This document shows positions 6,561-61,716 of a stretch of DNA of 64,000 nucleotides, in pieces. The notes beneath the pieces were generated by a model. That model made no database searches. It was not told the DNA's origin and was given only the letters and a program-made list of their open reading frames with translations. The stretch lies in NCBI GenBank assembly GCA_036172245.1, contig JAYWIR010000019.1:2046001-2110000 (forward strand), read 5' to 3'. The translations under genes were made by a program, and so were the position numbers. Numbering within the stretch: the stretch's first letter is position 1; each line of letters begins with the position of its first letter. This DNA comes from Raillietiella orientalis. Taxonomy: Eukaryota.

Positions 6561-7899
6561 CCTAGGTTAAAGAGAAGTTTCGCAATATCTGGTGCAGGGA
6601 TTCCCGGAGAGGAATGCTGCCGATAGGTCCCTTATCTGGACCAACCACTTATCTGCAAAGTGGTTGCGCAAAGAAAGAGGCGATCGTCGGTCGCATGTAC
6701 GCAGCCAAGAGCCGGAGGAGTCTCACCCGAGGGAAAGCTGCGCAGGCGGCGGTCCAGGCACCGCCCGCCCCGGAAAAAAGGGAAAGGAGGGATACCGAGG
6801 AAGAAGCCCTCGGAGAAGGTCCACGCGTTCGAGGCTGAGCCCCGTCGAAGCAGCCTCCGCAGACGCCCGCTGGACGACCTCCTAGATTCATCTGTCCCTG
6901 ACCCAGTCCTTTTGGGGATCCGGATGGATTGTCGGCGCCGCTTGTCTGCCCACTCGCTTTCCGTCGCGCAGGTGTGCGCCCGGTTAACCGGCCTTTGACG
7001 GCTCTCTGTTTGCTCACGCTCGCAGGTGACTAACCACCTTATCAGCCACCTCTTCAGAGCCTGAGCACACCGAAGGTCCCCCGCAAACAGAAATCGGGAA
7101 GAGCCCAGCCGTCTAAGAGGGAACCCTCGCCTACTAACCTACTGGCATCCTCCGATTCCCGGTGGCGTCTGTGCGAGTCGGATTGCCTCCGAAAGCTGTA
7201 TTTTTCCTTCTTCTCTTCCTTCTCCTCCTCTCATCCTTTTCCCTTTCTCTTCCTCCTCCTTCCCCTGCTCTTTTCCTCTTTTTATCCCCCTCAGCATTGA
7301 TGTGTGCGTCCCACTTCCAAGTAGCTTCGCGTGACCATGATGAAAACTTTCTTCAACAGCTCTTTGCACCCTCCCTGGGATGCGGAAGCAGAACGGGAAC
7401 GAGGTGGAGTCGACTCGTTCTCGACCGCCGAGTCGCGATCGCCGGAGGTCCGGAAAAAATCTTCCGGAGACAAAGACGAAGGTTTCTCTCTGCCTTCTCT
7501 GTGGAGCGACGGCCAGAATGCATTAGTGCAGGGTACTTCAGGAGCGGAGAGCTGCAGATGCTGCGCGATCGCATCATCCGCAAAGCCAGAGCGGGACCGC
7601 AGCTCTCTTGAGATGAAAAACCCTCCCACGAGATGCTTCTACGCCGGACGATGGGCCACCTGATGGGATTGCGAACTCACATGCATCTTTCGGATGTTGC
7701 TTCTTGAGGGACTCTGGACTCTCAAGAAAGGTGCTGGACGTGGAAATGGGCGGTTCCCAGTTTGCTCGACCATGAATCTGCACGGAAGAAAGGTGAGCGG
7801 AAAGAGGTGGAGGGTGAGGAATGGCAGAAGGCTTGTCAGAGTCTCCAATGATGAAGAATGGTCGGCAGGGAAAAGTTGGTCCAAAGTTCTTCTGATTGC

Positions 7900-8510
7900 C
7901 AGGGGGCTGGTTAGTCTTCCGGGAGGAAGTCAAGGTGCTGGTTCTTGCCATGAGCATCAGACGGAGTGAAGGGGAAGAGAAGAACGGGTTAAAGATGGCG
8001 CTGGAGGCGAGCAGGTTTCCTCACAAAGATATGCTGGCCAAAGAGGTTAGTGACGACTGTGGAGGTTCAGAAGGATGTCCCCGGAAGGGGGACGTGGCCT
8101 ACGAGTGATGTCACTATTAGGAGAAGGGGCAGCACAAATTATACTATCCAGACCCCGGCGTCTTTGGTAGGAAAGCGACATAGCACGCGGAAGACGTGCA
8201 GGCAGATTGCTGCTGCGGTGGCGTGGATGCAGCGTCGGAGTCGGCTGCTGGAGGCGCTGTGCGTGAGGCTGACGGCAGATGCGAGGACCTCTGTGGTGCG
8301 GGGACTGCACTGTATGGAGATTAAGGCGCCTGCACTTTACCCCTATGAGGGATCCAACGTCCCAGAGATGCTTGCTGCAGCAGGTGGTTTTCCTCACTCG
8401 GGCTTCTCCTTATGAACGAAGGGAACGAAGAAAGGGCCTTTCGGGTTGTGGGATGAACGCTTGGGACGTTATGACAATGAGAACTCAGGTCATGGGGATG
8501 TTCATAGAGG
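7900..8510 (+). pseudogene. Possible decayed LINE gag/ORF1 remnant
   Basis: Weak motifs only (YPY.., PTSQRCLLQQ resembling P.RC..CQ) across frameshifts. Confidence 0.2.
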
Positions 8511-8574
8511 GAGCATGATCGTGGAAGGGGAAGAAGGAGGAAGATGGATGGGGTAGATAGGTAGAAGAAGGAAG

Positions 8575-9426
8575 AATTCCGAATGTCGAAATCTCGAAAG
8601 ATTATTGAAAATAAATGCATGTTTTTCTTATGTATATATTAATGGATCAATTCGTACTATAAGGATTATGAAAAATAAATATATATACTCATTATCTATC
8701 TATATTTATTTATGTTTGGATTAATGTATATTAATATATTATGTATATTAACATTTATATACAGATTAATATACAAATTTATTTTGACCTGCATGTTTAT
8801 GAATATGTATTCATACCTATATATTCAGCATTGTAAGAGTAGATGAATGTGTCCATTATAAATAATAATATATGTAAGAAATGTATATCAAATGAATATA
8901 TAAATATGAATTATAAACATGTATATTTATCCAGCTATCAGAATCGCCCCCAAAATGCAATCCATCATTTACGGAGAGAGTGTCATTGAGCGTTGGAAAT
9001 GACAAACAAAGCAGATACACGGCATAGCCAATTAAAGTAAGCAATAAGAAATGATGAGAACATAAAATAGTGGAAAATTGAACATGTGAAATATTAGTAG
9101 ATATATATTATTATATAAATATTTTTATTATCATATGTATAAAATATGTCAATGTATATATATTCGATAATAAACATATATTTTTATAATCTTCAATGTA
9201 TATATTAATAATATATTAATGCATATTATCAATTATATCAATAGATATATATCCCAATACATATAAGAATAAATTTGTATATTAACCTGTGCATGAATAT
9301 GTATATTAACATATTATATACATTAATAAGCACATGCATTTATTTTTCATGATCTCCACAATATATACAGTAAACATATCTATATTTACTTATTTAGGAC
9401 CTCTCGAGAGTCCGAGATTCGGAATT
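8575..9426. mobile_element. AT-rich MITE/foldback-like element with 26-bp terminal inverted repeats
   Basis: Left AATTCCGAATGTCGAAATCTCGAAAG (8575-8600) versus right CTCTCGAGAGTCCGAGATTCGGAATT (9401-9426): 22/26 inverted match. Subterminal inverted AAATAAATGCATGT / ACATGCATTTATTT. Very AT-rich, non-coding interior. Confidence 0.75.
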
Positions 9427-10679
9427 TTGGCAGTTCGTAGGGATTCCGGCGTTTGGGATCAGCACCGATAAGAGGGAACATGAGTAAAGAACGGAGTAAA
9501 GAGCAGGTGTTTGGGCCTCGGCGCAGTTGGTTCATTGTAGGTCAAAGATGATGACGGCATATGAGAGAAGGTGGTCAGAATGCCTGTCCGAAAATGCTGC
9601 TGCGAGTTTCGCCCTTTGGCAGGCTGCTGGAGCACTCTCAGGCGTCATGGAGCTCCGAATCGAAAGAGAAGATGGGGAAAAAAATCCGAGCGGCCTGTGA
9701 AGATCTCCCCTCCGAACCAGGAAGAACGTGGGTGGCGAGCCTTCGCTGCCGGAATTCTGGGACCACTCAGAGGAAGATGGCGTTCCTTGCCTTCGTTTAT
9801 CGCCACCGGGAAGTACAGGAAAGCGGGACCGAAGTGGCGCCTCGCTCAAGGAGAGCGGACCGAGGAAAAAATCTTAGTCGACATTCCGCCTCCTAGTGGG
9901 ATGGGCGCACTAACAAACGCGTCCTTTACGAAGGCAGGAACCTGTTCTTCAAGAAAGGGAGCTGGGAATCTGGGGAGTCTGAATCCTTGTTGGGTCGTTA
10001 CTGTGGCAGTTTCGAGAGCGATAAATCGGGTGGCCAAACGGGCGAAGACACGGGTGCATCCGTCCGAGATACGAAGATAAGCGCAAGACGGGAGAGTGAT
10101 AAGAAGTAGTGCGCAGCAGTTGTCGAACCGGAGTTTCGCAGGCTCCAGGCTGCACCCGATTCCAAGGGCGGACGCAGAGTGTAGGTGAGGTGCCGAGCAG
10201 GGGGAAGCAGGGAGAAGAGGAACGCCTTTGCAACAGGGCGACCTCAGGCGGACTTCGCCTCAAGCGATGCGGTACGCGACGAAGGTGCTCCACGCCAAGG
10301 AAGCGCGCGCCATCTCTTCGCCGGCTGAAAGACATGAGCGCGCACGCACGCACACGTCCTTGCATTTCTTCCAAACGAATCTAAACGAGCCTTCTTCTGA
10401 GACACGACAGGGCTGCGCCGATTCCAACCTTTCGAAGATCAGGCTCAGGTCCTCCTTCCTCCATCAGGCCTGATCGGAAAATGGTCCACTAAAAGAGGCT
10501 GAGATCACACTGGAGAACGCATTGCAAAACGCGGAGGATCGAACGGAAGGATTGGACCGACCGCTCCATGGCTCGCTGAAAGCTGTGGGAATCACGCAGG
10601 CCGCTTAAGTGGGAGGATTGCAGTTCGGAACCGCACGTGACCCCCCATCGCCACCAAATGAATCGATAATCAGGCATGC

Positions 10680-11350
10680 CAGGATGTTCACTCCCAGTGA
10701 AGGTCTTCCTGAACTTGTGCTTGTCCCGCTTCCCGCTTCACAGCACGACGTCGGTCTTCGCCCCGATGCTTGGGTCGGCAAGTCGTCCAAACTGACGAGG
10801 TCATATTCCTCTTTCCTGGATTATTTGACGCGGAACCCTGATGACGTGGTGGCACGAGAACCGTGTTGCTTCCGAAGACATCACACTGCTCCAATGATAT
10901 CAACGATTGGAGGTCCATCCCTGTTGGAAATAGCGTGTACAGGGTACACGCTAAGATTGAAAGAAGGGATCGTGGAACAGAAAATAATTTGTCCCCAGGA
11001 AAGAGGATTTCTTCCCTTCGACGGGGTGCTGAAAAGGAATTTCATCCCTCGAACCCACCTCGACCAAGCGAGGTGGCAGTCGAAAGACCTGGGAATGGTG
11101 TTCCTAGTTATAACAAACGCGTTTGGAACGATCTTAATGATGAGAACAGTGCAAGAATCTGGAATTGGCCCTCAACTTACGAAGACCGTTCAGAATATGT
11201 GAAAGGACGCCGTGACATGCGTACAGGTGGATTTAGCAATATCGGATGCGGCTGATTGCCGACATCTCTACTGCTGGCGGAAGGCTTCGAGTGTTGCAGT
11301 TCCTTTCTTGAGGATTTGTTCGGTCTTTGTGTTGCGGCGATGAACCGCTG
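10680..11350 (+). mobile_element. Degenerate R2-group non-LTR RT fragment
   Basis: LLPKTSHCSNDINDWRSIPVGNSVYRVHAKI (domain 1/2), QERGFLPFDGV..NF (domain 2a) and LGMVFLVITNAFGTI (domain 3), linked by frameshifts. Confidence 0.7.
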
Positions 11351-11744
11351 GAAGTTTTATCCCGAACGAGCGACCCCTGCAGCATCGGGTTGACCAACCG
11401 ACGTCCCCGCGTTCTGATTTTCCGATGACGAGCCCTCAAACCCTTACAACGGCCTACGACAAACGGCTTCCGAAAAGTGCACCGAGCAGGGGTGGGCAAC
11501 ACGACATCCTCTTGCTCACTGACGTGATGGTTAAGATACGAAGTGGATCAGGAAGAAGTAAAGAGAAGGAACTGAAAATCAGGGATTCTTTTATAAAAAT
11601 CTCGTCTCCTGCGGCAATTGGGTCCTTCACGAGCTCTTCGCCTTTAGTGAATTCCTTTCAGTATGTTACCTGCGTATTTGAATTCAACGCTGTGCTTCAC
11701 GTGCTCGTCCTCACGTGCCAGAAATGTGACCACTTCCCGGCCCT

Positions 11745-11948
11745 TTACAGTGCTCTTTTATTCCTTTTTATTTTATTCTCTTTTTGTTTCCTTTTCCTCC
11801 CCGCTGCTGAGGTGAACCTTATCGGTCTGCAGACCGGCGACCCTGCTGGTCCATGGACAAATTGGGTGAAGTAGGACCACGTGTCCCACCACAATTTATG
11901 GGTTTATTTTAAATTCTAATTAACGCCCTGGAGTGTTCAGGGGTGATC
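11745..11948 (+). mobile_element. Diverged 3' UTR fragment of the L1/Tx1-like family
   Basis: T-rich tract, GCTGCTGAGGTGAACC, and terminal TAACGCCCTGGAGTGTTCAGGGGTGATCA resembling the family 3' end. Confidence 0.5.
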
Positions 11949-12200
11949 AGAGACGACCAGGGCGAGGGTCCGCTCCCAAGCGTAAGAGAGCAACGGACTC
12001 CTTTCTGGAGCATTTTTGGATCCGTAGGGTCGATCCCTATAAACTGAAGAGTCATTCGCACCCTCGGGTGGAGTGGACAGCTTGAAAAACCTTCGTGAGC
12101 TCCCCCTAAAGTGGCGAACGGTTTTCAGCATCAGCATTTGGCGACCAAAAAGAAAAAAAGCTGGAAGGAAGGCAGCGAAAACATAAGTCAAAGGATTTCT
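11949..12200 (+). mobile_element. SINE copy B, 3' half
   Basis: AACGGACTCC..GGATCCGTAGGGT..GCACCCTCGGGTGG..GGCGAACGG..A-rich..GCTGGAAGGAAGGCAGC, shared with copies C, D, E and F. Confidence 0.7.
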
Positions 12201-14239: not shown

Positions 14240-14906
14240 TCGAACTCTTCGTTGCTGCTTTCCTTCCTGCTTTTTCATCCACTTTTCTTTCCTTTTTTTT
14301 TTGTTTGACTCGCTACGCACTCGAGGACTCCTTTCGCCTGATGGTTCACGGAGCTCTTTGACGCTTCCCATGCCACCCGAGGGTGAGTGTTGATTCTTCC
14401 AGTTGGGGAAGGATATGACCCAGGGGGAATTACCCTATGAATCTAGGAAGTCTCCGGAGTAAGGAGTCCGTTCCTCTTACGCTTGGTAGGAGAACCTCGA
14501 AGGGAACCCTCGCCATGGTTGTCTCCGAAGCGAATCCCGAAGGGAACCTCTTCCTTGTTCTCTCCAGAGGGACCGTCCGGACTCTGGAGGGAACCCCGAA
14601 AAGGATCCGCTTCTGATTTCCTCCTCCTCTGAGAACCCTGAAGGGACGCTTCCCGATTTCTCAGAAAGTTCGCTCCCCGAAAGGGGTGGCACGCTTCTTG
14701 ACACTCTATAGATGCCAGAGGCAATTCCCGAGGAGAGTATTAACCAGCTCCTTGGTACCCGATGGAGGGCCATCCCGAGTGGGAGGAAGGCTCCATTTTC
14801 ACAACTGGAGTGTCCCGAAGGACGTTTTGATGTCCTGGAAGGAGCTCGGAGGATCCTGTTTTGATCCCGGCCAGTCAACGGGGGAATCCGGTTTCCGGCT
14901 TCCACC
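14240..14906 (-). mobile_element. SINE copy C, body and 3' part (head displaced to 17293-17452 by LINE insertions)
   Basis: Reverse complement of the SINE body, including GCCACCCGAGGGTG, GGAGTCCGTTCC, the CCCGAAGGG array and CCCGGCCAGTCAAC..GGTTTCCGGCTTCCACC. Confidence 0.75.
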
Positions 14907-15031
14907 CAGCTGGCCTGAGTGCCAGATCCCGGCAGGCTCCTTTTCGTATTCATAAGTAACGTGGCAGGATCAAAAGTTCTGCCACAGACATGTAGGTTTA
15001 GAAATAAACGCTCTGGCGTGACCGGGTGTCA
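14907..15031 (+). mobile_element. Short 5'-truncated L1/Tx1-like copy (3' UTR only)
   Basis: Matches 17180-17292 and the reverse complement of 41792-41920; ends ACGCTCTGGCGTGACCGGGTGTCA. Confidence 0.8.
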
Positions 15032-15038
15032 ATCAGTG

Positions 15039-17292
15039 CTGCGCCGATCACCGTGGTAAACGCGGACGCCAAGCTGCTAGCGAAACTGTGGGCCAAGCGG
15101 CTGGAGCGGGTGGCGGAAAGCATCATTAGTGGTCGTCTGCTGTTCCCGGGTGGAACATGGACTTCAACCTGCTTTGAGCTAGCACCTGGTTCGCGCATCA
15201 ACAGGAAAGGGAGATGATGGGCAACCGGAATTCCGGAGCGACCGTCGGTCAGGGACGGGAAGGTCGGGAGGGGAGGGGAGCTCTTGCGGTCGCAATTGAT
15301 TTGCACAAGGCATTCTATTGAGTCGACCAGGAGCTTTTCCTGGAGCTATTGGAACGCTTGGACTTTCCGACCGCATTGTGGGCCTGCCTGCGCTCCAGCT
15401 GGCGCCACGCGCTCATCAACTGCAGACGGAGCACGGAGTGCCGGCGCGACGCGGTATAAGGCAGGACGACAGCCGGGGCCCCCTGCTCTTTGGCACCAAT
15501 TTTGAATTCGTGCTGAGAGCATGCAGCAAGACTCTGGCTTCCCGCCTGCACGTATGTTTCGGCACGCCTGCCGTCTCAGCATTCGCGGACAATCTTCTGA
15601 TGTTGCTTTCCATATCCACCCGGTATGCTCACTCCAGGGTTTCTTCGAGTTGCTTAGTCGTGGGACGGGCCTGGTGATGAACAAGGCGAAGTCATCCGTG
15701 TTCCCGTTGGTGCGTCGTGGGCAGGGCGGCTGACTGGATCCGCCTGGGGATCCCCATGGGCAGGTACTTAATGTACCTGGCGTTCCGTTGGGGCTTCGCA
15801 GAAACCTGGTCCAGTCGTCTTCAGAAAGCACTGCAGGCTCTCGACACGTTCCAAAGAGACAGGTTTTATATGCCGGAACGGGCCGCGGTGTGGAACACGT
15901 TTGTGACTCCCCTCCTCCGCCCCCTCCCTGCTTTTTGTTTGACCCCTGCCATGCAGCATTAAAAAGCGAACAAAGGACTTCCTTTGGAACGCCCCCAGGG
16001 GCAAAGTAAGGTCGGTCTCGAGTCCGCCTAAAAGACTTGTGTGCTCCGCGCCCGGACGGCGGCCTAGGTCTCCCCTGACCCTGGCGTGGATGGAGTTGCA
16101 GCGTGGGACTCACGTCCTTCCTTGCGCACCCTCCACGCAGCCTCACCCACTGCGGAATACAACATCGGCAGGTGGCCACGCTGGTCAGGAAAAACGGATG
16201 GATCTGGTGCCGCCCAGAGAACAGCAGTGCCTGGCTGCAGGGAACCGTTCGCACGTGGGCGAGGATCCAGGAGCCAAGCGCGGGAAAAGTCTGCCGTTTC
16301 CTGTACACGCGTAACAACAACTGCACGCTCCGGGAGATCCTGGAAGATCCCGCGAAGAGCAAGCAGAATCTCCCTCGCCGCCGCGCTGCCCTCTCTTAGG
16401 GAGCATATGGGCAGGAGCCTCACCTCTAGATGGGAGGTTACTGTGGAAATATCCGGAAGCAGGAAAGGACTAGGCGAGTGGACGACGGAACAGCTCACTG
16501 ACCCTGCGACCCCGAGTGCTTGACCTCGCGGACTTTTGCGCTAGAGCGTGCTACTGGGCATTCCTGAGGGAGACCTGTAGTGGCCACTGGTGCTCATGCA
16601 CACCCGCACCTTCCCCTTAAAGTGGCAGGAGTCGGTATTGATGCTGCTGCACTGGGCCCTCCCGTGCAACGTCCGCCGGCGTGTGTGTGTGAACCCAAAC
16701 TGTGCAAAGTGTGGGGAGCGGGAATCCTTCCCGCACCCCTGGTGGACTGTATTGCTCTCCAACTTCTTTGGGGACACTTTGCCAGGACCCTTGGAACACC
16801 CGGCGGTAACGCCAGAGACGTTTGAAAGCGCCTCTTCCTGCGCGATACCCTCACGCCGGCCGCATCCCTAGAAGCGCTCTGCTGCCCACGCAGCGGTATC
16901 GTGGCTGCATGGAGCAACGCCAGAGGACACCCAAACGAGAGGGACACCATCTATTTTGCTGTTCTCTTCATGAGGATAGCATCAAGATGTCCCCTATCTG
17001 GTAGTTTTGAAACAGGAACCTGCCGGCATCCTTATAAGGATGCAGAGGACGCCCCCTCCAGCACACAATGATCCCTCCCTGGACCCCCCCATGTTTTTGA
17101 CTGTATGTTTTTTGTTTTTGTTGTTTTATTTTTTTTTCTTTTTGTGTGTCTCCCCTTCTCCTGTGCTGCCGAGGCGAACCCCGCTGGCCTGCGTGCCAGA
17201 TCCCGGCGGGTTCCTTCTCGTAGTTATAAGTAACGCCACAGGCATGTATGTTTATTTTCTATAAAAAAACGCCCCTGTGTGACCGGGTGTCA
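15039..17292 (+). mobile_element. 5'-truncated L1/Tx1-like LINE (ORF2 pseudogene: RT plus zf-RVT, and 3' UTR)
   Basis: PITVVNADAKLLAKLWAKRL (RT2), AIDLHKAF (RT3), RGIRQDDSRGPLLF (RT4), SAFADNLL (RT5), GLVMNKAKS (RT6) and KWQESVLMLLHWALPC..CAKCGERES (zf-RVT); multiple frameshifts. Confidence 0.9.
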
Positions 17293-17452
17293 ATCATTCG
17301 CGCACTCGAATGGTCTAACCCGCGTCATCTTGTGAGGGAAACTCGAAACCCACGACGCATCCATTTCTCAATATTGCTCCCTTCCCAGGTGGGATTCGAA
17401 CCCGCGATGCTTGGGACCGCGAGCGGAGACCGCAGCCACTTGGCGGCTACCA
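17293..17452 (-). mobile_element. SINE copy C, tRNA-like head
   Basis: GGGATTCGAACCC (reverse-complement B box) at ~17391, plus GCGTCATCTTGTG and ACTCGAAACCCAC matching other copies. Confidence 0.75.
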
Positions 17453-19829: not shown

Positions 19830-20510
19830 ATGCCCGCGCTGGAGTCCGCGTGTCTGCGGCCTCCTTGCGTCATGGGTTGTAATTCCACCCGGGGAAGGGT
19901 TGAGAAATGGGTGCGTCATGAGTTTCGAGTCCCCCGCTAGATGGTGCTGGCTGCAGACTTCGTGTGCAACACCGGTGGAAACTGGAAACCTCGGGTGCCC
20001 CGGTTGACTGGCCAGGATTGAAAGTTAACCCTCCGGGGTCCTTATGGGAAGCTAGGAGTCGGTTCCCTTTGGAATCCTCCCCTTCTCAGGTTGTGCAAAT
20101 AGAGCCGTCCTCTATCCTCGTTGGTTTCTAAGAAGCGCTTTGCTCCCTTCGGGGATCTCTTCAGAGGAAGAAAGGGGTAGCGGCTCCTTGAGGGTCCCCT
20201 TCGGAAAAGAAATAATAAAGCAGACCCTTTCAGGGGTTCCTCCAAAGAGACCTTAAGCAAGAATTTGTTTCCTTGAAAGTTCCCTTCGGAAGCAACCAGG
20301 GAGGAAGGGGTTCCTTCCCAAGCGTGGGAGGAACGGACTCCTTCCTCTGGGGCCCTTCCTGGATCCGTAGGGTGGTCCCTCCGGGGTAACAACCTATGAC
20401 TTGAAATGTTATAGGCACCCTCGAGTGGCGTGGAGCAGTGGTGAAGAACTTCGTGGGTAGCCAGGCGAACGGCGTTTCCCGAGTGCTTAGCAAATCCTTC
20501 CCAAAAAAAG
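19830..20510 (+). mobile_element. SINE copy D, near full length (empty LINE target)
   Basis: Degenerate head, GTGCAACACCGGTGGAAACTGGAAACC, GTTGACTGGCCAGGATTG, CCCTTCGG array, GGATCCGTAGGGTGGTCCC and GCACCCTCGAGTGGCGTGG. Confidence 0.75.
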
Positions 20511-21989: not shown

Positions 21990-23337
21990 AGCTTTGGGGA
22001 TAATATGTATTCCGGCGGATTGCGAACGACCTGAAGAACAGTTTCTTCTTGCCATTTCTGAACCAAGTGATGGGAAAGCTCCATCTCGTGCTTCCTGCCC
22101 TGTGGGCTGCCAAGGACCTACAGCCCACGTATCGCCACCTCCCATTCTTGCTAAGCAAGACGAGGCGCGACCCCACGAAGAGCTGCCAGGCAACCCTCGA
22201 ACGCGGTCGAGCGATGTACGGCAACCGATCACGCCGCTGCCAGCGTTAAACCCTTCGAACAAAAGGAGGACTGCCTGCCTGCAGGAGTCAGTTTTCGGCA
22301 CGGGCGAGGCAGAGTTCATCTTCGGAACAGCAGATACGCTCCTCAGCCGCTGAGGCAGATCCTGGGGAACACCAGGAATCTGCTGTGGGCTTCGTTCACC
22401 CCCCTCGCCCCAGTGCTGCCCTCCCTAAGGGAAGCTAAGGACAGCCAACTTCCGGCGGGGAGGAACGTGACATGTACTATCCAGAACAAGAAGAAACAAC
22501 AGCTGGGGGTGTGGACAACTCTGGAGCTGTCGGAACGCAGCGACCCCGAGTGCCCCGCCCAAAGGACTGCTACTCTGGGAAGAGCTGCTACAGATCCCTC
22601 TGAAGGGGGTATAGTGGCCCCCGGCGTGCTGAAACACAGTGCTACCCTCCCCCTAAAGTCGCAGGAGTCGGCGTTGCTGCTGCTGCACCGGGGTCTCCCG
22701 TGCGACGCCCGCCGTCGTCACTGGACACAGGGGGGATGCGTGGACCCGAACTGCGTCAGGTGCGGGGAACTTGAATCCCTCCCGCACCTCCCAGTGGACT
22801 GTGTTGCCCTCCATTTCCTTTGGGGGCGCTTTTCCGCGACCATTGGAACTCCCGGCGGCAACCCCAGAGACGCGCCTCTTCCTGAGCGACGCCCGCATGG
22901 AATGTCGGCCGCATCCTTAGCAGCACTTTGCTGCCCACGCCGCAGGGCCGTGGTTGCATGGAGCATTGCCAGAGGAGACCAAACCGACGCCATCTATTTT
23001 GCTGTCCTCTTCATGAGGATCGCGTCAAGATGGCCCCATCTGGGAACCTCGAGACAGGAACTTGCCGGCATCCTTGCAAGGATGCAGAGGACACCCTCCA
23101 GCACCTGGTGATCCCTTTCTGACTCCTCCCCCCTCCCCCCAGTTTTTTTGTATTTTTTTGTTTTATTTCTCTTTTCGTTTGTCTCCCTGTGCCGCCGTGG
23201 CGAACCTCGCCGACCTGCCCGCCGGCTCTCGGCAGGTTCCTTGTGTACATTTTACCACGTGGCAGCATCACGCATCTCGTCAATGACGCCCAAGTTTTAT
23301 TTTTAACAAACAAACGCTCCGGCGTGACTCGATGTCA
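21990..23337 (+). mobile_element. 5'-truncated L1/Tx1-like LINE copy (ORF2 C-terminus plus 3' UTR)
   Basis: ORF 22413-23111: PLKSQESALLLLHRGLPCDARRRHWTQGGCVDPNCVRCGELESLPHLPVDC (zf-RVT); ends ACGCTCCGGCGTGACTCGATGTCA. Confidence 0.85.
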
Positions 23338-35591: not shown

Positions 35592-36400
35592 TGATTATCG
35601 CCCGTTGTGTCGGGGAATTTATTACATAAAGCATTAAAAATGCATTGGTACAAATACACGTGCAATGAACCTGCCGAGGACTGGTTCGCAGACCGGCGAG
35701 GTCCTCTTCAACAGCGTGGGGAAAGGGGAAAAAAATAAATAAATAAGCAAACAAAGCACACAAAAACGGGGGAGGGGAAATTTTACACGGGGAGGAGGAG
35801 GGGGGAGGAACTGAAGAAAGGATCACAGCATGCTGCCAGGTGTCCTCTGCACCCTGTTTAGGATGCTGGCAAGTTCTGTCTTTATTGCTGCACCACCCCA
35901 GGAGGGACCATCTTGAGGCGGTCTTCAGGAAGATCCGAGCCCAGTGAATGGCGTCCCTGCCGTTGTGGCCTCTTCTTGGTGCCGCTCCAGCCCGCGAAGG
36001 CAGCGGACAACTGCGAGGGACGCGGCTGAAGGCAGTGCGGCGCGAAGAGCTTTGAAAATGTCCCGGGGTCGCCCGACGGGACTCATAGGGTCACCGCGAG
36101 GCGATCCCAAATGGGACGGAGGGCAGTACAGTCTAGCAAGAGGTGCGTGAAGGTCTCCTTCTCGCCGCACCTGCCCCACTCCGTACCCACACTCCCTGTG
36201 TCCAGTGGTGAAGGCGCTCTTTGCACGGGATTCCCCCGTACAAGACCAGCAGCGCCAAATTCCACCACTTGAGGGAGAGGGTGCTGCGGGGGGCCACCTC
36301 ACCTGCTCCAGAAGGATGCCAGGCAGCTCTTCTCAGCGCACAAGTCCGTAGGGTGGGACATCCGGGTCGCAGCGTCCGTCACTTCCCGAGTTGTCCACGC
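35592..36400 (-). mobile_element. Diverged L1/Tx1-like 3' fragment
   Basis: Minus-strand KWWNLALLVLYGGIPCKERLHHWTQG and GEKETFTHLLLDCTALRPIW (zf-RVT), then a T-rich 3' UTR like the other copies. Confidence 0.75.
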
Positions 36401-36499: not shown

Positions 36500-37300
36500 G
36501 CGACTCCTAGATGACGGAAATCCTTTAAGATTCTTCTGTTTCCGCTGCTTTCCTTCCAGCTTTTTTTCTTCTTCTTCGGTCTTTCTTTTCTTTTTTTTTG
36601 GTTCTTCAAGTGCTCAAGAACCTTTCGTCTAGGCGCCCACAAAGCTCTTTGACACCGTCCGCGCTGCCCGAGGGTGCATGTAGATCTTCAAGCTAGGAGG
36701 TGCCTCGGGGAGACGACCACCCTATGAATCCAGGAAGGGCTCCGGAGGAAGGAGTCCGTTCCTCTTGCGATTGGTAGGGGGATCCTGAAGGGAACTCTCG
36801 CCCTGGTTGTCTCCGGAGAGAACCCCGAAGGGATACTCTTCTTCCTTATCCTCTCCAGAGGGACCCTCAGAAAGGATTCGCTCCTCGTTTCCTCCTCTGA
36901 AGAAAATCCCGAAGGGACGCTTCCCGATTTCCCTGTAGGGTGCTCCTAGAAGGGAGCAGCGTGCTTCTTGACACTCTCGAGACATCGATCCACCAGCACC
37001 GTGGTACGCGATGGATGGTCTCCCCGAAGGAAGGGAAGGGACGACTCCATTTGCACAGCCAGATGGGAACCCAGAATCTCTCCTTGATTCCTGGAAGGAC
37101 CCTGGAAGGTCAACCTCCAAATCCCGGCCAGTCAAAGGGGTCATCCGTCCTTCACCAGTGCCGCACCCGAACACCCCAGCCAGCGTCGTCCTGTGGGGAG
37201 AGTAAACGATGCATCTCCCGTTTCTAGATGTTGATCCTTCCCCGGATGGGATTGGAACTCGCCACGCTTGGTGCCGCACGGCGAAGACCACAGCTATGCG
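36500..37300 (-). mobile_element. SINE copy E, near full length (empty LINE target)
   Basis: Head GGGATTGGAACTCG at ~37248, target TTCACCAGTGCCGCAC 37151-37166, CCCGAAGGG array and T-rich reverse tail. Confidence 0.75.
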
Positions 37301-41639: not shown

Positions 41640-41791
41640 GCGGGCCGCGTTGGCCTCCGCGCGTGGCACCAGGCGCCGCGGGTTCGAATCGCACCCGGGG
41701 AAGGATCCACGCCGAGAATAGGGGAGCGTCGTAGGTTTCCAGTTCCTTCCACAAGATGACGCTGGTTGGACCATTAGAGTGCGACACTGGT
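41640..41791 (+). mobile_element. SINE copy F, tRNA-like head up to the insertion site
   Basis: GGGTTCGAATCGCACCCGGGGAAGGATC, CAAGATGACGCTGGTTGG, ending GTGCGACACTGGT. Confidence 0.75.
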
Positions 41792-43520
41792 TGACACCCG
41801 GTCACTCTGGGACGTTAATTTATAAAAAAATAAACGAAGACTTCTGTGGCAGGACGTTTGATCCTACCACGTTACTTAAGAATACGAAAAGGAACCTGCC
41901 GGGATCTGGCACGCAGGTGAACGGGGTTCGCCTCGGCAGCGCAGAAGAAGGGGAGACAAACAAAAAGAAAAAACAAAAAACATACAGTCAAAAGAATGTG
42001 GGGATTCTGGAAGGGATCACTGTGTGCTGGAGAGCATCCCTGTGAGGATGCCGACAAGTTTCTGTTTCAAGGCTCCCAGATGGGGGCCATCTTGACACTA
42101 TCTTCGAGGAGAGAACAGCAAAATAGACGACGTCCCTCTCGTTCTGGCCTCCTCTGGCGTTGCTGCTCCATGCAGCCACGAGGTCGCGTAGGCAGCAAAG
42201 TGCTGCTAGGGAGGGATGCGGCCGGCATGAGGGCGTCGTGCCCGCCCCATCCCTAGCAGCGTCGCGCTGGCGTGAGGCGTAGCGCAGGAAGAGGAGCTTT
42301 ACTACGTCTCTGGGCTTGCCGACGGGAGTTCATTGGTCGCGGAAAAGCGCCCCCAAAGGAAATGGAGGGCAACACAGTCCATTGGGAGGTGCGGGAGGGA
42401 TTCAGGTTCCCCTCACCTGACGCAGTTCGGGTCCACGCATTCCCCCTGTGTCCAGTGACGACGGCGGGCGTCGCACGAGAGGCCCCGGTGCAGCAGCATC
42501 AACGCCGACTCCTGCCACTTTAAGGGGAGGGTACGGATGTTCATGAGCACCAGGGGCCACTGCAGGTTTTCCTCCGGAATACCAGTAGGACGTCCCAGCG
42601 CAAAAGTCCACGAGGTCGAGCACTCGGGGTTGCAGCGTCGGTGGGCTGGCCCGTCGTCCACTCTCTCAGTCCTCTTCTCCTCCAAAGATTCCACCCATCT
42701 AGCCGGAAGGCTACTGCCCATATGCTACCTAAGGGAGGGCAGCGCGGCGGCGAGGGAGATTCTGCTTGCTCTTCGCGGGATCTTCCAGGATCTCCTGGAG
42801 CGTGCAGTTGTTACGCGCGTACAGGAAACGACAGACTTTTCCCGCGCTTGGCTCCTGGATCCTCGCCCACGTGCGAACGGTTCCCTGCAACCAGGCACTG
42901 CTGTTCTCTGGGAGGCACCAGACCCATCCGTTTTTCCTGACCAGCGTGGCCACCTGCCGATGTTGTATTCCGCAGTGGGTGAGGCTGCGTGGAGGGCGCG
43001 CAAGGAAGGACGCGAGTCCCACGCTGCCTGTGGCTTGCTGGACGAGGAGGCGTGCAGGTTGGTTCAGGTGGTGCTCCACAGGTTTGCCACGATGGCGAGT
43101 GTTCGAAGCTGGAGCTGGAACTCCATCCGCGCCAGGGTCAGGGGAGACCTAGGCCGCCGTCCCGGCGCGGAGCACACAAGTCCTTTAGGCGGACTCGAGA
43201 CCGACCTTACTTTGCCCTAGAGGGCGTTCCAAAGGAAGTCCTTTGTTCGCTTTTTAATGCTGCATGGCAGGGGTCAAACAAAAAGCAGGGAGATGGCGGA
43301 GGAAGGGAGTCACAAACGTGTTCCACACCGCGGCCCGTTCCGGCAGACAAAACGTCTCTCTTTGGAACGTGTCGAGAGCCTGCAGTGCTTTCTGAAGACG
43401 ACTGGACCAGGTTTCTGCGAAGCAGAAGTCCCCAAACGGAACGTCCAGGTACTTCAAGTACTGTTCCGTGGGGATCCTCAGGCGGATCCAGTCCGGACGC
43501 CCTGCCCACTCCAGGCTACC
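41792..43520 (-). mobile_element. 5'-truncated L1/Tx1-like LINE flanked by an ACACTGGT duplication
   Basis: Reverse-complement homologue of ~15730-17292 (KYLDVPFG, KWQESALMLLHRGL..CVDPNCVR); ACACTGGT at 41784-41791 and 43521-43528. Confidence 0.9.
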
Positions 43521-43910
43521 ACACTGGTGGAAACCGGAAACCGGACGCCCCGTTGACTGGCCAGGATTGGGAGTTGACTTTCTGGAGTCCTTCCAAGAAT
43601 CAAGAAGCCATGATTCCCTTCGGGGTCTTCTTCAAAGACAACCAGGGCGAACCAGGTGTCCCTCCCAAGCGGAAGAGAGGAGTGGAACTTATCCTCGGAG
43701 CCTTCTTGGATCCATAGGGTGGTCCCTCCAGGGTTGACCTTAACATGAATAGTTGCCCGTACCCTCGGCATGGAGCAGTGCCGAGGAGCTTCTTCAGCCG
43801 CTCCTGAGGAGGCGAGCCAGGGTCGGAAGCATTTGGCGAACCCTACCCCTCCCTCCTCCCCCAAAAAGAAAAGCTGAAAGGAAAACGGGAGGACCCCAAA
43901 GGATTTCCAT
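43521..43910 (+). mobile_element. SINE copy F, body resuming after the LINE
   Basis: ACACTGGTGGAAACCGGAAAC..GTTGACTGGCCAGGATTGGGAGTTGAC, CCCTTCGGGG and GGATCCATAGGGTGGTCCC. Confidence 0.75.
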
Positions 43911-44944
43911 CATCGTCGGCCAATAGCGCCTCCGCATCCACAAAGCGCACGTATGATGGTTCCTGGTTCCCGGGACTGCATTTGCTCGAGAGGAGATGGC
44001 ACTCCCACCGAGCCTCCTCCGCAGCCACTTAAGAGGAACTCATGCAACCGTTTCGCGATCCCTGCTCTCGCTTGGAATATGGGGAAGAGCTGCTCATAGT
44101 ATATCTTCCTGTTGCTGCTGCTCTGAGCCCTCCGAGAACCGCAACAGTGTTGGACCCGGACGGTTTCGCTCCCCTTGGACGGCAGGTAGGCAGTCGAAAG
44201 GGGTGAGAGACGGTAACGCGGGAGCGGACGTTCCTGGAAGGGAATTTCTGTATCAGCGAAGGCTACATCAGCGGCAGAAAAGGGAGGAAGAGGGGAAGGA
44301 AGGAGGAAAAGGGAGGAGCGGAAAGGGAGGAGGAGGAGAACTTCATTCGGCATGGCAGCGTCTTCTCAATTTCCCACGCCAGCCTCCTACGCGTGACTCC
44401 CACCCATCCACAGGAACTGACATCTGCCGTCTCTTCATGGAGATGGACCGCCACTCTCGCGGTGCAGCGGAGAGAGGGGTGCAAGAGGGGGATCCCTACC
44501 TCAAGAGAGTGCTGCATCTCTCCCTCCTCTCTGAGTGGACCCCTAGAAAAAAGTGGACGAGAGCCACGTGTCCGTTTCGAATCTTTCGGCTGTTGCTTCC
44601 GGCCTCTTTTCCTGTTTTCCGCTCGCGTCTCGAAAATTTCCCTGAGGGAGCAATCGGAAGCAGGGAGGAGGGGGTTCCTCCGATTGCTTGGTAATTTTCC
44701 CAGCTCCGTGTGGTCCCCTGATCCGGGAGAGCCCGCGTCGGCGGCTTCCGCGCGCCGTAGAGGATCGACACAGAGAACGGGTGAGTTCGCAGGATGCAGG
44801 TCGGCTCGCGGGCTTCGGTGTGACACTGGAATGACTCTTGGAGACCGGGTGACCCCACCGACTAGCCGGAGTTGGAAGCAGACCCTCAGAGGTCCTTCCG
44901 CGAGTCTCAGCCTCAGGGTTTCCCTTCCAATTCGCGTCAAAGAA

Positions 44945-47640: not shown

Positions 47641-50600
47641 TAAGCCACGTCTGAGAACACGCCCCTCGGTAGGGTTGCAGTGGGTAGTCTGTGCTGACCG
47701 TCGGTGCTGATGCAGTTGGTGCGAAGCAACGAAAATGAGCGACTGCTTCGGTGATGCTGATTTCTTCTCGTAAGCAGGAGCTCGGGATTTCGTCTTGATT
47801 GCTTTTGATCTTGCAGCTGGAACGCCAGCATCTAAAGTCTTCTCTATTTTCCTTTTTGGAAAGCAATCTGGATGCTCATTGGGGATCACTGCAGATTCTG
47901 ATAGTGTCGGGCACAGAGTGAATAGATAAGGAGAAGAATGGGAAAACATGGGCTGATAACAGTTCGTGCTCCAAGAGCTGACATTCCGTCGCAAATCATC
48001 CGGGGAAATCGGAAATCTCGCCGAAGATTAATGATGCTCTTTTGAACGCTTCTCTGCGTCTCTGGGAACGGGACACTTCCCTGTTCCACAGTGTTTTCGA
48101 CGGCCGTCGGTTTCGATCCACTTTCGAGTGATGGGCTCTCTCTCACATGCTAAGACACCCACACGATCTCTCTTTTCAGCCTGTTTTGTTATTCTTGCGT
48201 TTTGGTTCCTCCGCGGATCTTTGCGAGCTCAGCTTCGCTGCAACCGTGAGCCGGAGGGTGGTAATCAAGCAAAGAATGCATAAACAAAGGCTGTTTGCAC
48301 CATGAAGCCAACCAGAAACAAATTAGAGGAGTTAGTGATCCGCCGAGTTCGTGTATGAGAGTGTGTGTTGGCTGCGCGTGTTTTTGGTGCTCCTCCTTTC
48401 GCGGAGGCAAACAAGCGTTCTTTTCATCATGTTATCTCCAGAAACGGATTTCCTTTTTTTGCACTGTTTTCATCAAGGATCGTTGTGTTTTCCTTCCTAA
48501 TAGACTCGTGGACCCACCTCCTTGTGGCAGCTGTGTGAGGTTTCGTACCCGTTCCGTCCGATCTCATCGAACATTTAGAGGACATTTTTCAACCCCGCGG
48601 CGGCTTAGTATTTTCTAGAAGCTGTGGTTCCGCAATCTTCATCGAAGAGGAAACGCATGTATTGAGAGAAAACATGATGACAGCTCATCCGGCGGCCCTA
48701 TGAGTCAATTTCTTTAATGAACCGATCACATCCAAAAGGAGGAGAGAAGGAAAAAAAAGAAAAAAAAAAAATTGACGATGAACCACAACTACTTGAGCGA
48801 AAGATGCGTTCCTCTTTGTGAGAAGGGTGTTTATCGCTACTTCAGGATGCTTCTGATTAAAGAAAGCCGGGTTGTTTGCATGTGCCTTGCTAAAAGTCTT
48901 TTCAGGTGAATGCCCAACAGCACTGCTGGCAGAAGAATAGTTGCGGAGCTTTGGAACCAAAGCAGTCAGATGGCAGACGACTCTTGCTTCAAGGGGAGTC
49001 CTTCCTTCTTGGTCACCACCTGAAGGTCCGACATGCGCGAAATTCAGGAAGTGAGGGAGAGGGAAAATTCGAGGAATCCTTAGGAAAACGAATCTCTCCG
49101 GAAACTCCCTGCAAGGGAAAGCCGGTAGCTTGTGGGATACGGAGTGCTCGTGAACTGAATACACCGTTCATTAGGGTCATTCATTAGGTTCATTAGGTTC
49201 ACCGGTCATTAAGGCAGACTGGCTGTCATTCGAAAGAGGTGCTCAAGCAGGCAAATGGAACTGAGCCACAGTTGTCCCTTTTCCTCTCGTCGCGTTCCTC
49301 CATTCATCGATAACGGGGTGAGCAAACTCGATTCCTCTATTTTGCTTTCCAAAATGCATCGTGGAAGAAGATTCCCATTTCGGTTTGTCACTGTACCAAC
49401 ATCCAGCGTTATTGTAGCAAATCACCTAAATTTGAAAGAGCCGAATAAACTTTCAGCCTACCTTCTGGAAAAGAGAGGTGAAGTCTTTTTGTGTTTGGCA
49501 AAGAAGAGGAACGGCTCCGTTCTTTGCGAAGCTGCTTGGAGAATGAAGGAAAAGTTTGCAGCTTTGTTTTATTTTTTTCAAAATAGACGTACCGGCGTAA
49601 CCGGGTTCAAACCTCGTGGAAAAGCGGCGCGCGTTTCTGTGGTCTTTTCCCGTAACCAGCAAATCCTCATCTGGAAATTCACTACTGTCCTTTGCCTGCT
49701 TGTTTTCCTGAGATTGGTTTTCGAAAGGAAAAAAAAAGCTGCAAGTCAGAGGGGAAAAGCATCCCCTCAAAAACAGGAAATGCCCAAAAAAAAGAAGTCC
49801 CTTTGGTTAACCGCCGGCTTCCAAAAAAGTAGGAAATGGAGGGTGGGAACAATAAATAAATAAAAAAAGACGGGAGAGTGAAGATAGGGGTCTTTGGTTT
49901 GAGACATTTCTTGCGTTCTAAAAGCTGTGTGGATGGTGACGATCTCCTTGGCGACTTCTTCTGGCAGATGAGGCCACCTTGCTGCTGTCTTCGAGGCAGA
50001 GATCTCGTGGAACTACGCCTTTCCTCCTGCCGTGCTGCGAAGACAACCGGATTCCCTGAGGCCTGAGCATCACGTGGACTGCATGTGCCAGATAGCCAGT
50101 GTCGAGATTGACACGAAAAATCAAGAAACCTGGAGCTCGAGCGCAGGATTTTCAATGAAAATGCTGCGAGAGCTGCAGAGCTGCCGAGAAAAAGGTGGAA
50201 CAGGCAACTAGCTTGACTTGAAAGAATCTAATACTTTGAAAGAAGATTAGACGGGAAGGAGGTGAGCTCTCCAAAGATGGTAATATTGAGGGTTTTTCTT
50301 GTTTTTTTCGTAAAGAATTGGTGGATGTGATTTTGAGGTAAGGCTGATCGGCATATCCTTGATAATGTCCTGATGATGTATCTTCTGATTTACTACTTAG
50401 ACAGTGAACGTAGATGACAGCCCAAAAGAAGTCTCCTTAGAGTTCCTTGAAGTTGTGCTTGATCCTTTGTGATTTTCGGGTTTCAGCACTTTGGGGAGCT
50501 CACGGTCACTATTTCAGGAGTTCACCACTTGACCATCATTCCTCGTCTCATTCTTTCCTCACCTTCTCTTCCATCCTTTTTTGATCCTTACTCTCCTTCC

Positions 50601-56949: not shown

Positions 56950-58338
56950 AGCCGAGTTGAGAAAAGTTTGGCTGCGTGAAATCCTGATGACCAAATCTGA
57001 GATGCGTTTTGGGGTACCTCGGTGAAGTTCGGATGGAACCCAGAAACTGCAGCTTCCCGCAAAGTCCGCGTTCGAATGGCGCGATGCTTTGGTGAAAGGC
57101 TCCTTGCGCAACCCGGTCATGTTACAAAATAACCATCCGTGCCCCAAGTCGATTCCTCTCCATGCACAGCATCACGTTCTCTGCGCCTCTGAGCCAAACT
57201 TTGCTGCTTGTTCCTGCTGTTCCTCTCCGTATGTTCGTGCAGAAGCTTGAACGAACGGGCCTGCTGTGCTCCAGATACACTAACCGCTCGCTGAAGGAGA
57301 TGATGGACTGCCCGAGAACCCTGTGGACCCAGAAAACCCTTCTTGCTTTGACAGTATCGACCCTGAGGGATAGCCAAGACGGTTACCAGCCTGAAAGATG
57401 GAAAATAACCTGCGAGACGGCAGGCAAAGAGGAGCAGTTGGGATGCTGGACAGCTCTTTAACCGGCTGACGTCTCCACCCTCACCGCCCTCTCCAAAGGA
57501 CTTCTCCGTTGGGAGGATCTCCTCGGAATCCTGTTGGAGGAAGTGGAGATCCTCGCGTTCTTGGACAGCTCCGTGGTTCGGCTGAAGTGGCAGGACTCGA
57601 CGTCGCGACCGCCGCGTTGGGCCATCCCATGCAACGCCCTCCTCCACCACTGGACGAGGGGAAGTGCAGCGGCCCAGAGTGCGACAGGTGCGACGGAATG
57701 GGGAACCTTGCCGCACCTGCCTTTCGAATGTGTTGCCCTCCGGCGTGTGTGTGGGAACGTTTGAGCCACGTCCCTGAACTTCCTAAAAGACCACAAGAAG
57801 GCCTTATTCAGGCGGCGCTCTTCACGTGTGGCAGGATGTCGCATGCCACGGCGATCTCGGTTTCGTGCTGCGATCCGTGGGATCACGGAGGCTATTGCAT
57901 CCTCCTTGAGAGGATGCAAAGGACACCAGAAAGCAGTATGTGATCCTTTCCCTTTCCCTTGACACCTTTGAAGAATTCCAGCGCCAGGATTACCAGACAG
58001 AAACCGAGAGTCCAGGGCAGAGAGAATTCATTTGAAAAGCCATGTCCATTTCAGCAATTCTCTGAGAGGAAAACCAATCTGGTTCTTCACTGTACAGATG
58101 AAGAACTAGATTCTTACCTCCCAAACACTTTATAACCTTTTTGTTTGATGCTTATTTATTTATTGTTTCGTTTCCCCTTCCTTTCTCTGCACGTACCTCT
58201 TCCGGAGGCTGTTTCCCAGCAGAGAACTCCCTCGGAACATGCGGAAGTAGCGGCATTGTGCTGCCATTACAAAGTGAATGGAGGATTGATTGATAAAAGA
58301 TGTGTCTTTTGCAAGAAACGCCTCGGTGTGACCGGGTG
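56950..58338 (+). mobile_element. Diverged L1/Tx1-like LINE 3' portion
   Basis: RLKWQDS..WAIPCNALLHHWTRG, C-terminus ILLERMQRTPESSM* matching ILARMQRTPSSTW*, and end ACGCCTCGGTGTGACCGGGTG. Confidence 0.8.
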
Positions 58339-59849
58339 AAAACACGGAAACTCGAAACGAGGATGATTTTCCGGCGAGCTTTCAAGCTCCCGCAGGATGC
58401 GCATCATCCCGAATTCCCGTCATTTTTTGGCGTTTGCATCCATAATCGCGAGTCGCCTTTTTATTCCTCGCCTTCGCATGCTGAATTCTGCGTCTGTATC
58501 CATAGAAGGACTCATCGGCGATGACGCAAGCCGAAGCATGAAAGGTATTCGTTATGCTTCCAGCGAGGGAGTTCACGTTTCCTGTTTCTCTCAGAATCTG
58601 AAGCACTTTCCCGTCCCCTATAGAAAAAGCGGTGCCATCGACTAAAGGCCAGAATTGGCTGAATCGCAGCTGTTGGAGTCATTGGAACGCATGATATCCT
58701 TCCGACATTCACGAGAACTGCAGGTCGGCCTTCGATGCATCATCCTCAATACGCCACAGGGCTGCAATTTTGAGGAGCTGGATACAATACCAGCTTCAGC
58801 ACACTGGAGTCATTGCATATTTTTGTGTGCTGTAATCTGACAACACTCCCACATTCAAAAGAATTCCCGTGCTCTGCCTAACTGGAGGAAAAAAAAAAAA
58901 TGTAAAGGATCGTTTCAAAGAACCCAATCATCTCTTTTGAACTTTAGGGGAGAGATTATTTGCCGGATTCTGAATGCAGCTCAAAACGAACGGCGGCAGA
59001 GTGCCGCTGAATTCCACTGCAATTTTCTAGTCGTATTCGGTCTTTTGTCGTCCCGCTGTTCCACTGCTCTGCTCTTCTGAAATGGAAAATGAAAGTGCAA
59101 TTCTTCAGCTTTCCATTCTTCCATTTGGGCTCCGGGTTTTGCACCACGCGCGAGGAATCGTCTGCACTGCGAGATGGAAGATCTCAGCACCTGCAACATC
59201 CTACAGTTTGAGGTGCGTGTGCACCCCTATCCAAAAAATGGCTGATGTTGAATGAAATGCGAATTGATAATGTCTCGACCGTTTCCCTTAGGGCAGCGCT
59301 TCCCAAGCTACGTTCCGGGGAACACTGGTGTTCCCCAGAAAGTCAATAAGTGTTCCGTGAAAACTTATGGAAAACGAATGCATTTTGAATGCTGCGCCAA
59401 GTCGAAAGATGTTTGAAACTCTAGCGCTCCTCGCTTTGCGAGTCAGCAGCTTTGCTGATATGGTGTGCCCGAGGTCAGAAGAATTTGTCATTCAAAGACC
59501 CCAAAACATCGAAGCTATTCGTTTCACTAAACATACGCTAATTTATTTTACTACTTTCATGTGTTTTTGTTTCGCATAATTACAAATTTGAGAATGGAGG
59601 TTTGCTTTGTTTTCTCAACTCTTATGTTTACATGCTCGATTTGTTTATTATTAATATCTGCCTACCCTATAAAATAGCCCAAGCTATTCCCCCCATTTTC
59701 AGGATTTGTGAAGCGTTCCGTCATGGGAAGAAGTTTGGGAAACGCTGCCTTAGGGATAGTTTACTCCCTGATGTAGACACCCATGGGCGTAATGAAAGCA
59801 TTTGGGAATTGAGAACGAAAATGTGACGGAATTCCCTGCCTCCCTTTCG

Positions 59850-60959: not shown

Positions 60960-61716
60960 GAACATTCGTCAAGTACCTCAGGAATCGTCGCGCGCCTGAC
61001 GGCTCACGCAACTCTTTAACGCCGTCCACGCCACCCGAGGGAGCGTGTGATTCTTACAGAAGGGAACCACCCTATGGATCCAGAAAGGGCTCCGGAGAAG
61101 GGAGGCCGTTTCTCTGACGCCTGGAGAAAGATCCCCGAAGGGAACCCTCGTCCTGGTTGTCTTTGAAGGAAACCCCGAAGGGAATCCTTAATTCCTTATT
61201 CTCTCCGGAGAGATTCCCGGAGGGGAGCGCTCCATTTTTTCTACTCCGAAGGGAACCCGCAAGGGAGTTGCTCCCTGTTTGCTTTTCTGAAGAGAATTCC
61301 CGAAGGGACGCTCCTGAATTTTCCCTAAAGGGCGCTACCCGAAGGGAGCGGCACGCTTCTTTGCACTCTTGAGGGATACCATCAATCCACCAGCACCATG
61401 GGTACGAGACGAAGGGTCCATCCACGAGGGGGAAGTGACGGCTCCTTTGTACAACCGGAGGGAAACTCCGAAGGGAACAGGACTCCTTGATTCTGTTTCC
61501 TGGAAGGACCCCGGATAGTCGACTCCCTATCCCGGCCACTCTTCGGAAGGATCCAGTTTTTCAGCTTCCACCGGTGTCGCATCCGAATAGAGGCTAACCA
61601 GCGTCATCTTGCAGGAGGAACGCGAACCCACGAAGCACCCCTCAATTCTCTGCGTCGATTTTTTCCGAGTATTCGAACCCGCGACTTTTGGAGCTAAGCG
61701 CGGAGACCGCAACCGA
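60960..61716 (-). mobile_element. SINE copy I, near full length (empty LINE target)
   Basis: ATTCGAACCCGCG head, target GCTTCCACCGGTGTCGCAT 61564-61582, clearest CCCGAAGGG array and GCCACCCGAGGG. Confidence 0.8.

Follow-up and report, generated by a model that had tools for sequence, protein, structure and literature searches.

The 64,000-nucleotide stretch of Raillietiella orientalis DNA analyzed here (assembly GCA_036172245.1, contig JAYWIR010000019.1, positions 2,046,001 to 2,110,000 of the forward strand; hereafter, the window) is repeat-rich eukaryotic DNA of ~53% GC. Profile search identified within it ~9 dispersed copies of a ~780-bp repeat with an A-rich tail, a retroposon resembling a short interspersed element (SINE). 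Two of these copies, denoted C and F, are interrupted by a decayed long interspersed element (LINE) that lies antisense to the repeat (Table 1).

A LINE inside a SINE-like repeat at two loci

At locus F, the repeat is split by an antisense LINE of 1.73 kb with an 8-bp duplication, as a first-pass annotation of this DNA had described: both 8-mers read ACACTGGT, with 1729 bp between them, and both align to the repeat consensus. Beyond the LINE, the repeat picks up again with ACACTGGTGGAAACCGG. The start of this LINE is equivalent to position 15717 of locus C and is joined to a complete ACCAGTGT. At locus C, the order on the plus strand is the 3′ part of the repeat ending in ..TTCCACC, a short LINE piece (LINE_a), a longer one (LINE_b) and the 5′ part of the repeat. 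Copy C had been described as split at the position and in the relative orientation seen at F, which is confirmed, except that the locus holds two tandem LINE pieces instead of one. The placement of LINE_a beside LINE_b could reflect either two successive insertions, the second into a site that had been regenerated, or a single event in which the reverse transcriptase (RT) switched templates; both pieces were counted as one locus.

According to BLAST and profile searches, the repeat is broken at profile positions 147/149 in copy C and 140–157 in copy F, the overlap in F being the duplication. The two breaks are the same site within the 4–8 nucleotides that are not assignable to LINE or target. 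The 14-mer at the 3′ end of the LINE at F, GTGACCGGGTGTCA, is found without mismatch at only two other places in the window, 15018–15031 and 17279–17292, both on the plus strand, and the latter is followed by the reverse complement of the 5′ part of the repeat.

Table 1 Features of the window that bear on the LINE insertions and their host repeat.
Feature	Position	Strand	Remarks
Repeat copy F, 5′ part	41651..41791	+	profile 11 to ~151; ends ..GTGCGACACTGGT; nhmmer with repeat profiles, sequence
Target-site duplication, left	41784..41791	+	ACACTGGT; exact 8-mer repeated 1729 bp apart
LINE F	41792..43520	−	1729 bp, 5′-truncated; 3′ end GTGACCGGGTGTCA at 41805–41792; without poly(A)
Target-site duplication, right	43521..43528	+	ACACTGGT
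Repeat copy F, 3′ part	43521..43845	+	profile positions 232–505 deleted
Repeat copy C, 3′ part	14289..14906	−	profile 149–778
LINE_a	14907..15031	+	125-bp 3′-terminal LINE fragment, directly upstream of LINE_b
LINE_b	15032..17292	+	2261 bp, 5′-truncated within RT-like region; 3′ end is the same 14-mer as in F
Repeat copy C, 5′ part	17293..17438	−	profile 5–147; adjoins LINE 3′ end
Uninterrupted site, copy A	4888..4904	+
Uninterrupted site, copy B	19964..19980	+
Uninterrupted site, copy D	37150..37166	−
Uninterrupted site, copy E	61566..61582	−
Uninterrupted site, diverged copy L	44815..44840	+	profile
Repeat copy A	4753–5356 and 11950–12160
Repeat copy B	19859–20520
Repeat copy C	17438–17293 and 14906–14289
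Repeat copy D	37299–36576
Repeat copy E	61718–60955
Repeat copy L, diverged	44761–45240		found with profile
Repeat copy N	51098–50774
Repeat fragment	46974–47083
Insertion ending in LINE I	5357..11949	+	6593 bp; diverged LINE 3′ end ..GGGGTGATCA
LINE G	22380..23337	+	related subfamily, outside repeat; open 318-aa frame 22155–23108 with zf-RVT-like Cys/His motif
LINE H	35592..36400	−	diverged relative; 3′ end outside repeat
LINE K	57585..58341	+	diverged relative ending GTGACCGGGTGAAA; flank not repeat
LINE M	49562..49609	+	weak short 3′-end fragment, E 0.0012; flank not repeat

The target motif GTGCGACACTGGTGGAA, allowing up to 3 mismatches, occurs 6 times in the window, each time within a repeat copy, compared to 0.16 occurrences expected from shuffled sequences. 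The four uninterrupted copies reported previously (A, B, D and E) do have the site intact, and the profile added a fifth, the diverged copy L. Position, orientation, duplication, 5′ truncation points and uninterrupted sites can all be read directly from the DNA.

For two independent insertions in an element of 784 bp, coincidence at one nucleotide and in one orientation is expected by chance in ~1 in 1,570 cases for a named pair, and with a probability of ~0.002 once every pairing of the three repeat loci that bear a LINE is allowed for. The repeat makes up 8.0% of the window, and 3 of the 7 loci with LINE ends lie within it (binomial P ~ 0.014). All 3 LINE ends with the exact 14-mer (2 loci) are at the site, compared to 0 of the 5 ends of diverged subfamilies. 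Two integrations at one nucleotide, in one orientation and in separate repeat copies are far beyond chance; within the scope of a single 64-kb window, and short of proof, this suggests that the LINE prefers the repeat site.

Independence of the insertions and competing explanations

The integration events at C and F look independent, given that the outer flanks are unrelated, the 5′ junctions and the 8 nucleotides at the 3′ junction differ, and the two repeat copies are not close. Outside the repeat, no homology was detected between the loci. The 5′ junction at C consists of ..TTCCACC only, followed by the 125-bp fragment and 685 bp more LINE than is present in F, and F keeps five target bases (AGTGT) beyond those in C; neither junction is derivable from the other by a simple deletion. 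The 8 nucleotides after the LINE at the 3′ junction are ATCATTCG in C and ACCAGTGT in F, i.e. 4 of 8 differ, whereas the preceding 14 are identical and 14 of the following 15 agree. Over the repeat as a whole, C has 74% identity to F, which is nearer to A (80%).

The LINE sequences themselves are mosaic. Those at C and F are 95–97% identical over ~630–700 bp (C ~15800–16430, F 43440–42740), a block with the same apparent frameshifts in both, and ~80% identical on either side; a 91-bp segment of F (~43118–43028) has no counterpart in C. F and the related LINE G, in turn, are 95–97% identical over ~200 bp that include a common 15-bp insertion (C 16642–16810 region). These three copies lie within 30 kb of one another. 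With LINE copies that are mosaic and a repeat tree that is star-like, phylogenies of LINE and SINE do not lend themselves to a reliable comparison. Close to the insertion site, the repeat sequences of C and F agree at 30 of 33 positions on one side and 28 of 31 on the other, compared to 55–76% identity further out, and both carry a GACCATT..GAG variant; in the 20 other pairs of repeat copies, the same two stretches have mean identities of 68.8% (maximum 81.8%) and 67.4% (maximum 90.6%). This local similarity fits an extended target recognition that would span ~30 bp to the left and right of the site.

The explanation that we favor, with moderate confidence, is that a LINE subfamily lacking poly(A) and ending in ..GTGACCGGGTGTCA integrates by target-primed reverse transcription preferentially, in antisense, at one position of the abundant ~780-bp retroposon. 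The endonuclease of the element would nick the sense strand of the repeat at ..CACTGGT^GGAA.. (profile ~151/152), and from the freed 3′-OH the LINE RNA would be reverse-transcribed, beginning at its 3′ end; the cDNA would usually terminate early, and cleavage of the opposite strand 8 bp away would give rise to the ACACTGGT duplication. The type of endonuclease, the order of the nicks and the span of recognition, whether limited to a short motif around the nick or extending ~30 bp in both directions, are inferred components of this scheme. Given that four junction nucleotides, A(T/C)CA, fit the LINE tail as well as the target, the length of the duplication is 4 to 8 bp. A homology of the target to the 3′ end of the LINE was also considered and was rejected, as equally high scores are reached by 27% and 49% of random sites. 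A more far-reaching version, which we hold only tentatively and find rather doubtful, is that of a LINE lineage with the SINE-like retroposon as its dedicated landing site, which would read ~30 bp on each side rather than the cut, with diverged sister subfamilies at other fixed positions of that retroposon.

Several observations weigh against preferential integration. There are two loci only, both in one window. The 8 nucleotides at the cleavage site of C differ from the consensus at 4 positions, which would be surprising if the nuclease recognized the cut site itself. In the repeat tree, C and F are paired in 8% of the bootstrap trees, and this pairing is not rejected (approximately unbiased test, p = 0.425). 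The mosaic blocks are indicative of sequence exchange among neighboring copies at the DNA level, or of the copying of dead templates, and the similarity of C and F near the site could equally represent local co-ancestry through conversion. The RT and endonuclease of the LINE were below threshold in every library searched. Finally, a motif of 7–9 bp would be sufficient for the observed pattern. Because such a motif at the nick would yield the same picture, the repeat itself is not established as the target; of the SINE-targeting LINE initially proposed, what stands is two events at one nucleotide and in one orientation.

This last point leads to the best surviving alternative, a short-motif hot spot, in which the endonuclease prefers only a short step from pyrimidine to purine like T^GGAA and the abundant repeat happens to carry one especially good site. 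We consider this unlikely. In its favor, the repeat contains 6 of the 15 occurrences of GGTGGAA in the window, 4 of 7 of YGGTGGAA and 3 of 3 of CYGGTGGAA; the repeat is rich in TTCCC/GGGAA motifs; and a related LINE entered the repeat at GTCTC^CGAAGGG (nicked strand), with an 8-bp duplication. In both nick contexts, T^GGAAAC and C^CGAAGGG, the cut leads into a purine run of the GAA type. However, shorter motifs are mostly located outside the repeat (only 6 of 38 occurrences of CTGGTG are inside), and yet 3 of 3 ends of the subfamily are found at one site; furthermore, the similarity of the filled copies over ±33 bp is unexpected from a preference for 6–7 bp.

Less probable still is copying at the DNA or cDNA level, whereby a single true integration would have been propagated by ectopic gene conversion between inverted repeat copies 24 kb apart. 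The highly similar C/F and F/G blocks, with their common apparent frameshifts against a background of ~80%, are compatible with such copying. The same is true of the identity between C and F, which reaches ~90% only within 33 bp of the LINE, and of the C+F pairing, which the tree leaves unrejected. Conversion does not readily account for 5′ junctions that are not interconvertible by simple deletion, with AGTGT retained in F and the 125-bp fragment plus 685 bp in C, or for an 8-nucleotide stretch at the 3′ junction that differs at half of its positions amid a context that is 93–100% identical. A single ancestral chimera of repeat and LINE, later retrotransposed or duplicated as a unit, is disfavored as very improbable: LINE divergence outside the conserved blocks (~80%) is indeed near repeat divergence (74%), but C and F have unrelated outer flanks and differ in both LINE length and 5′ junction, and the repeat copy nearest to F is A, not C.

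The repeat, the LINE and the other LINE ends

The repeat profile was built from copies E, D and B and comprises 784 positions, with the A-rich tail at the end. A length of ~780 bp by profile does not agree with the earlier description of a short SINE, as SINEs are usually under ~600 bp, and the repeat also contains internal TTCCCTTCGGGG-type repeats. The body is built from units of this type and is variable in length; within copy A, there is a CT-rich, microsatellite-like expansion (5035–5213). The proposed derivation from tRNA is weakly supported: a B-box-like GGTTCGAATCC is conserved in the repeat head, and ARAGORN makes a tRNA-Gly-like call on 1 of 6 repeat heads at 90% thresholds, compared to 0 of 6 at default thresholds. 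Rfam searches yielded no tRNA match at E up to 1 for the window or up to 10 for the head of copy E. The repeat is thus SINE-like and perhaps tRNA-headed; the evidence reaches no further. A dinoflagellate spliced-leader relic was sought as well, with 0 matches.

The LINE label relies on structural features, together with a weak match to zf-RVT and motifs discerned by eye. Hallmarks of LINEs are present, namely, a common 3′ end, variable 5′ truncation (125, 1729 and 2261 bp) and 8-bp duplications at F and in copy A. There are 8 LINE ends (7 strong, 1 weak), as opposed to the six counted earlier, the additions being K at 58341 and the weak M at 49609; in their 3′ region, all have a stretch rich in T, a conserved segment that can form a hairpin, and ..TCA at the terminus. 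The stem GGCCTGC..GCAGGTT is kept in 6 of 6 aligned LINE 3′ regions (17185–17215; 41870–41900 on the minus strand), where changes are mostly one-sided; this hairpin may serve in recognition by the reverse transcriptase.

No Pfam domain, RVT_1 included, was detected in the 197 open reading frames of at least 110 amino acids (aa) in the window, and RVT_1 had no match in 11 shorter pieces or in 43 pieces of the 6.6-kb insertion in copy A. Against zf-RVT, the C-terminal Cys/His zinc-binding motif of ORF2 in the L1/Tx1 group, the segment 22590–23108 scored 18.3 bits (E = 0.0038), short of the 27.5-bit cut-off, and the shorter pieces otherwise gave only weak CCHC matches. A CxxC..E..H....C motif is visible in the LINE G frame, and an FADN (YxDD-like) box with neighboring RT motifs can be discerned, by eye only, at 15300–15730. 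The language-model neighbors of the LINE C-terminal region (score 0.95) include one cluster in which 25% of the members carry zf-RVT. The PDB search returned nothing significant (R2 RT chain 8gh6_A at E = 0.66 only), and word-indexed protein searches with the ORF1-like protein and the RT piece gave no match. With RT and endonuclease domains below threshold in all databases searched, membership in the Tx1 clade is not established.

When the 318-aa C-terminal frame was compared by phmmer to 1.84 billion representatives, 2 matches were obtained, of which P0003 is relevant and P0004 is a repetitive protein. P0003, an 87-aa protein with 65% identity encoded on a 2870-bp JGI metagenome contig, is the sole database relative of the LINE C-terminal region; a related element is therefore present in an environmental sample. 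A degenerate pattern of the LINE 3′ end had 0 matches in metagenome, genome and viral contigs, and among the 598 stretches that fit the pattern when related loci were sought with P0003, 0 were confirmed.

The specificity is incomplete, as already recognized: the LINE ends at 23337, 35592 and 11949 (not 11948, as first given) are elsewhere, and so are K and M, all of them belonging to diverged subfamilies. The insertion that ends in LINE I splits repeat copy A at profile ~545, in sense orientation, and is flanked by an 8-bp duplication (GAGACAAC at 5349–5356 and GAGACGAC at 11950–11957). No protein domain is detectable in its 43 pieces, and a search for an ORF1 or RT homologue inside the insertion gave none; the GC content drops to 41% at 8–10 kb, and the insertion may hold nested material. 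None of the flanks of G, H, K and M matches the repeat profile. A 13-mer match of the K flank to the repeat scored 26, inside the range of shuffles (up to 29), and exact 8–9-mers upstream of G (20114) and H (37087), considered as possible duplications, are unsupported by structure. The flanks that follow the ends of G (23338–23346) and M (49610–49618) both read A(T/A)CCTCGT, with agreement at 8 of 9 positions, which could reflect a common target preference of those subfamilies, or chance.

The 3′ end of LINE G abuts, on the opposite strand, the end of a 395-aa open frame (23338–24522, minus strand) with three CCHC knuckles, the language-model neighbors of which are ZCCHC3-type RNA-binding proteins (score 0.95). 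Located 48 bp upstream of this frame is a sequence similar to U4 small nuclear RNA (snRNA; 24570–24709, minus strand) that covers the full length of the model at 41.2 bits, against a gathering score of 46, and has a degenerate Sm site. Together, these may be an snRNA-LINE chimera, or else a LINE 5′ region beside a U4 pseudogene. Elsewhere in the window, at 45436–45710, there is a degenerate G/T-rich array that Tandem Repeats Finder reports as (TTAGG)n, with 54 copies and 61% matches; it is too decayed for a telomeric label.

Relation to known target-specific LINEs

Among LINEs with defined targets, Dewa is found in tRNA arrays and Mutsu in 5S rRNA. R1 and R2 are specific for ribosomal DNA, where they occupy a fixed site and where tandem or nested copies are common; R2 has a restriction-like endonuclease and upstream and downstream DNA-binding domains. 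The LINE described here shares the fixed site with these elements, but its target is not a host gene, and its nuclease may or may not be of the R2 type. The endonuclease of mammalian L1 prefers TTTT/AA, and nested insertions into the A-rich parts of Alu occur. The likeness is that a preference for a short sequence at the nick turns particular positions of a repeat into hot spots; by contrast, the site here is GC-rich (CACTGGT^GGAA), there is no poly(A) tail, and the insertions are at one nucleotide.

The closest parallels come from the Tx1 families of crocodilians. Tx1-Mar inserts preferentially in Mariner-N4_AMi, the preferred insertion of Tx1-9_AMi is ~300 bp into Harbinger transposons, and Tx1-8_Crp and Tx1-4_AMi prefer long terminal repeat (LTR) retrotransposons (Kojima 2015, PMC4494074). 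As in the present case, these are LINEs that prefer a fixed position of another multicopy transposable element. Their targets, however, are DNA transposons or LTR elements, whereas here the target is a retroposon with a SINE-like build, and those families were analyzed genome-wide, compared to 2 loci and a putative Tx1 membership here. Also cited there are Tx1L, which inserts in the piggyBac-type Tx1D of Xenopus, Keno in U2 snRNA, and Kibi and Koshi in microsatellites (PMC4494074). They resemble the present element in sequence-specific, endonuclease-driven integration into repeated, dispensable DNA, and differ from it in that the targets are RNA genes, microsatellites and a DNA transposon and that the specificity is documented on many copies.

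No described case of a SINE as a LINE target was found in the literature on LINE target specificity, Repbase Reports and supplements (including the target figures of PMC4494074) being outside the search. The first-pass annotation recognized no described case either; Tx1 families that target transposons have, however, been published (PMC4494074). Thus, if real, the preference described here would represent a new target class rather than a new mechanism, given that LINEs targeting transposons are already known.

If the insertions only mark a short-motif hot spot, they would be an ordinary feature of nested repeats. For annotators, a true preference would be a caution: composites of a LINE within a SINE may arise repeatedly at one position and need not be duplicates of each other. 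From LINEs with a specific target it can be learned how mobile elements spare the host, and some are in development for site-directed insertion. With a SINE-like repeat as its target, the LINE would come with thousands of natural target variants from which the recognition code could be read and, if the more far-reaching reading of a dedicated landing site were true, this would be the first SINE-specific LINE, a parasite-on-parasite safe harbor among retroposons.

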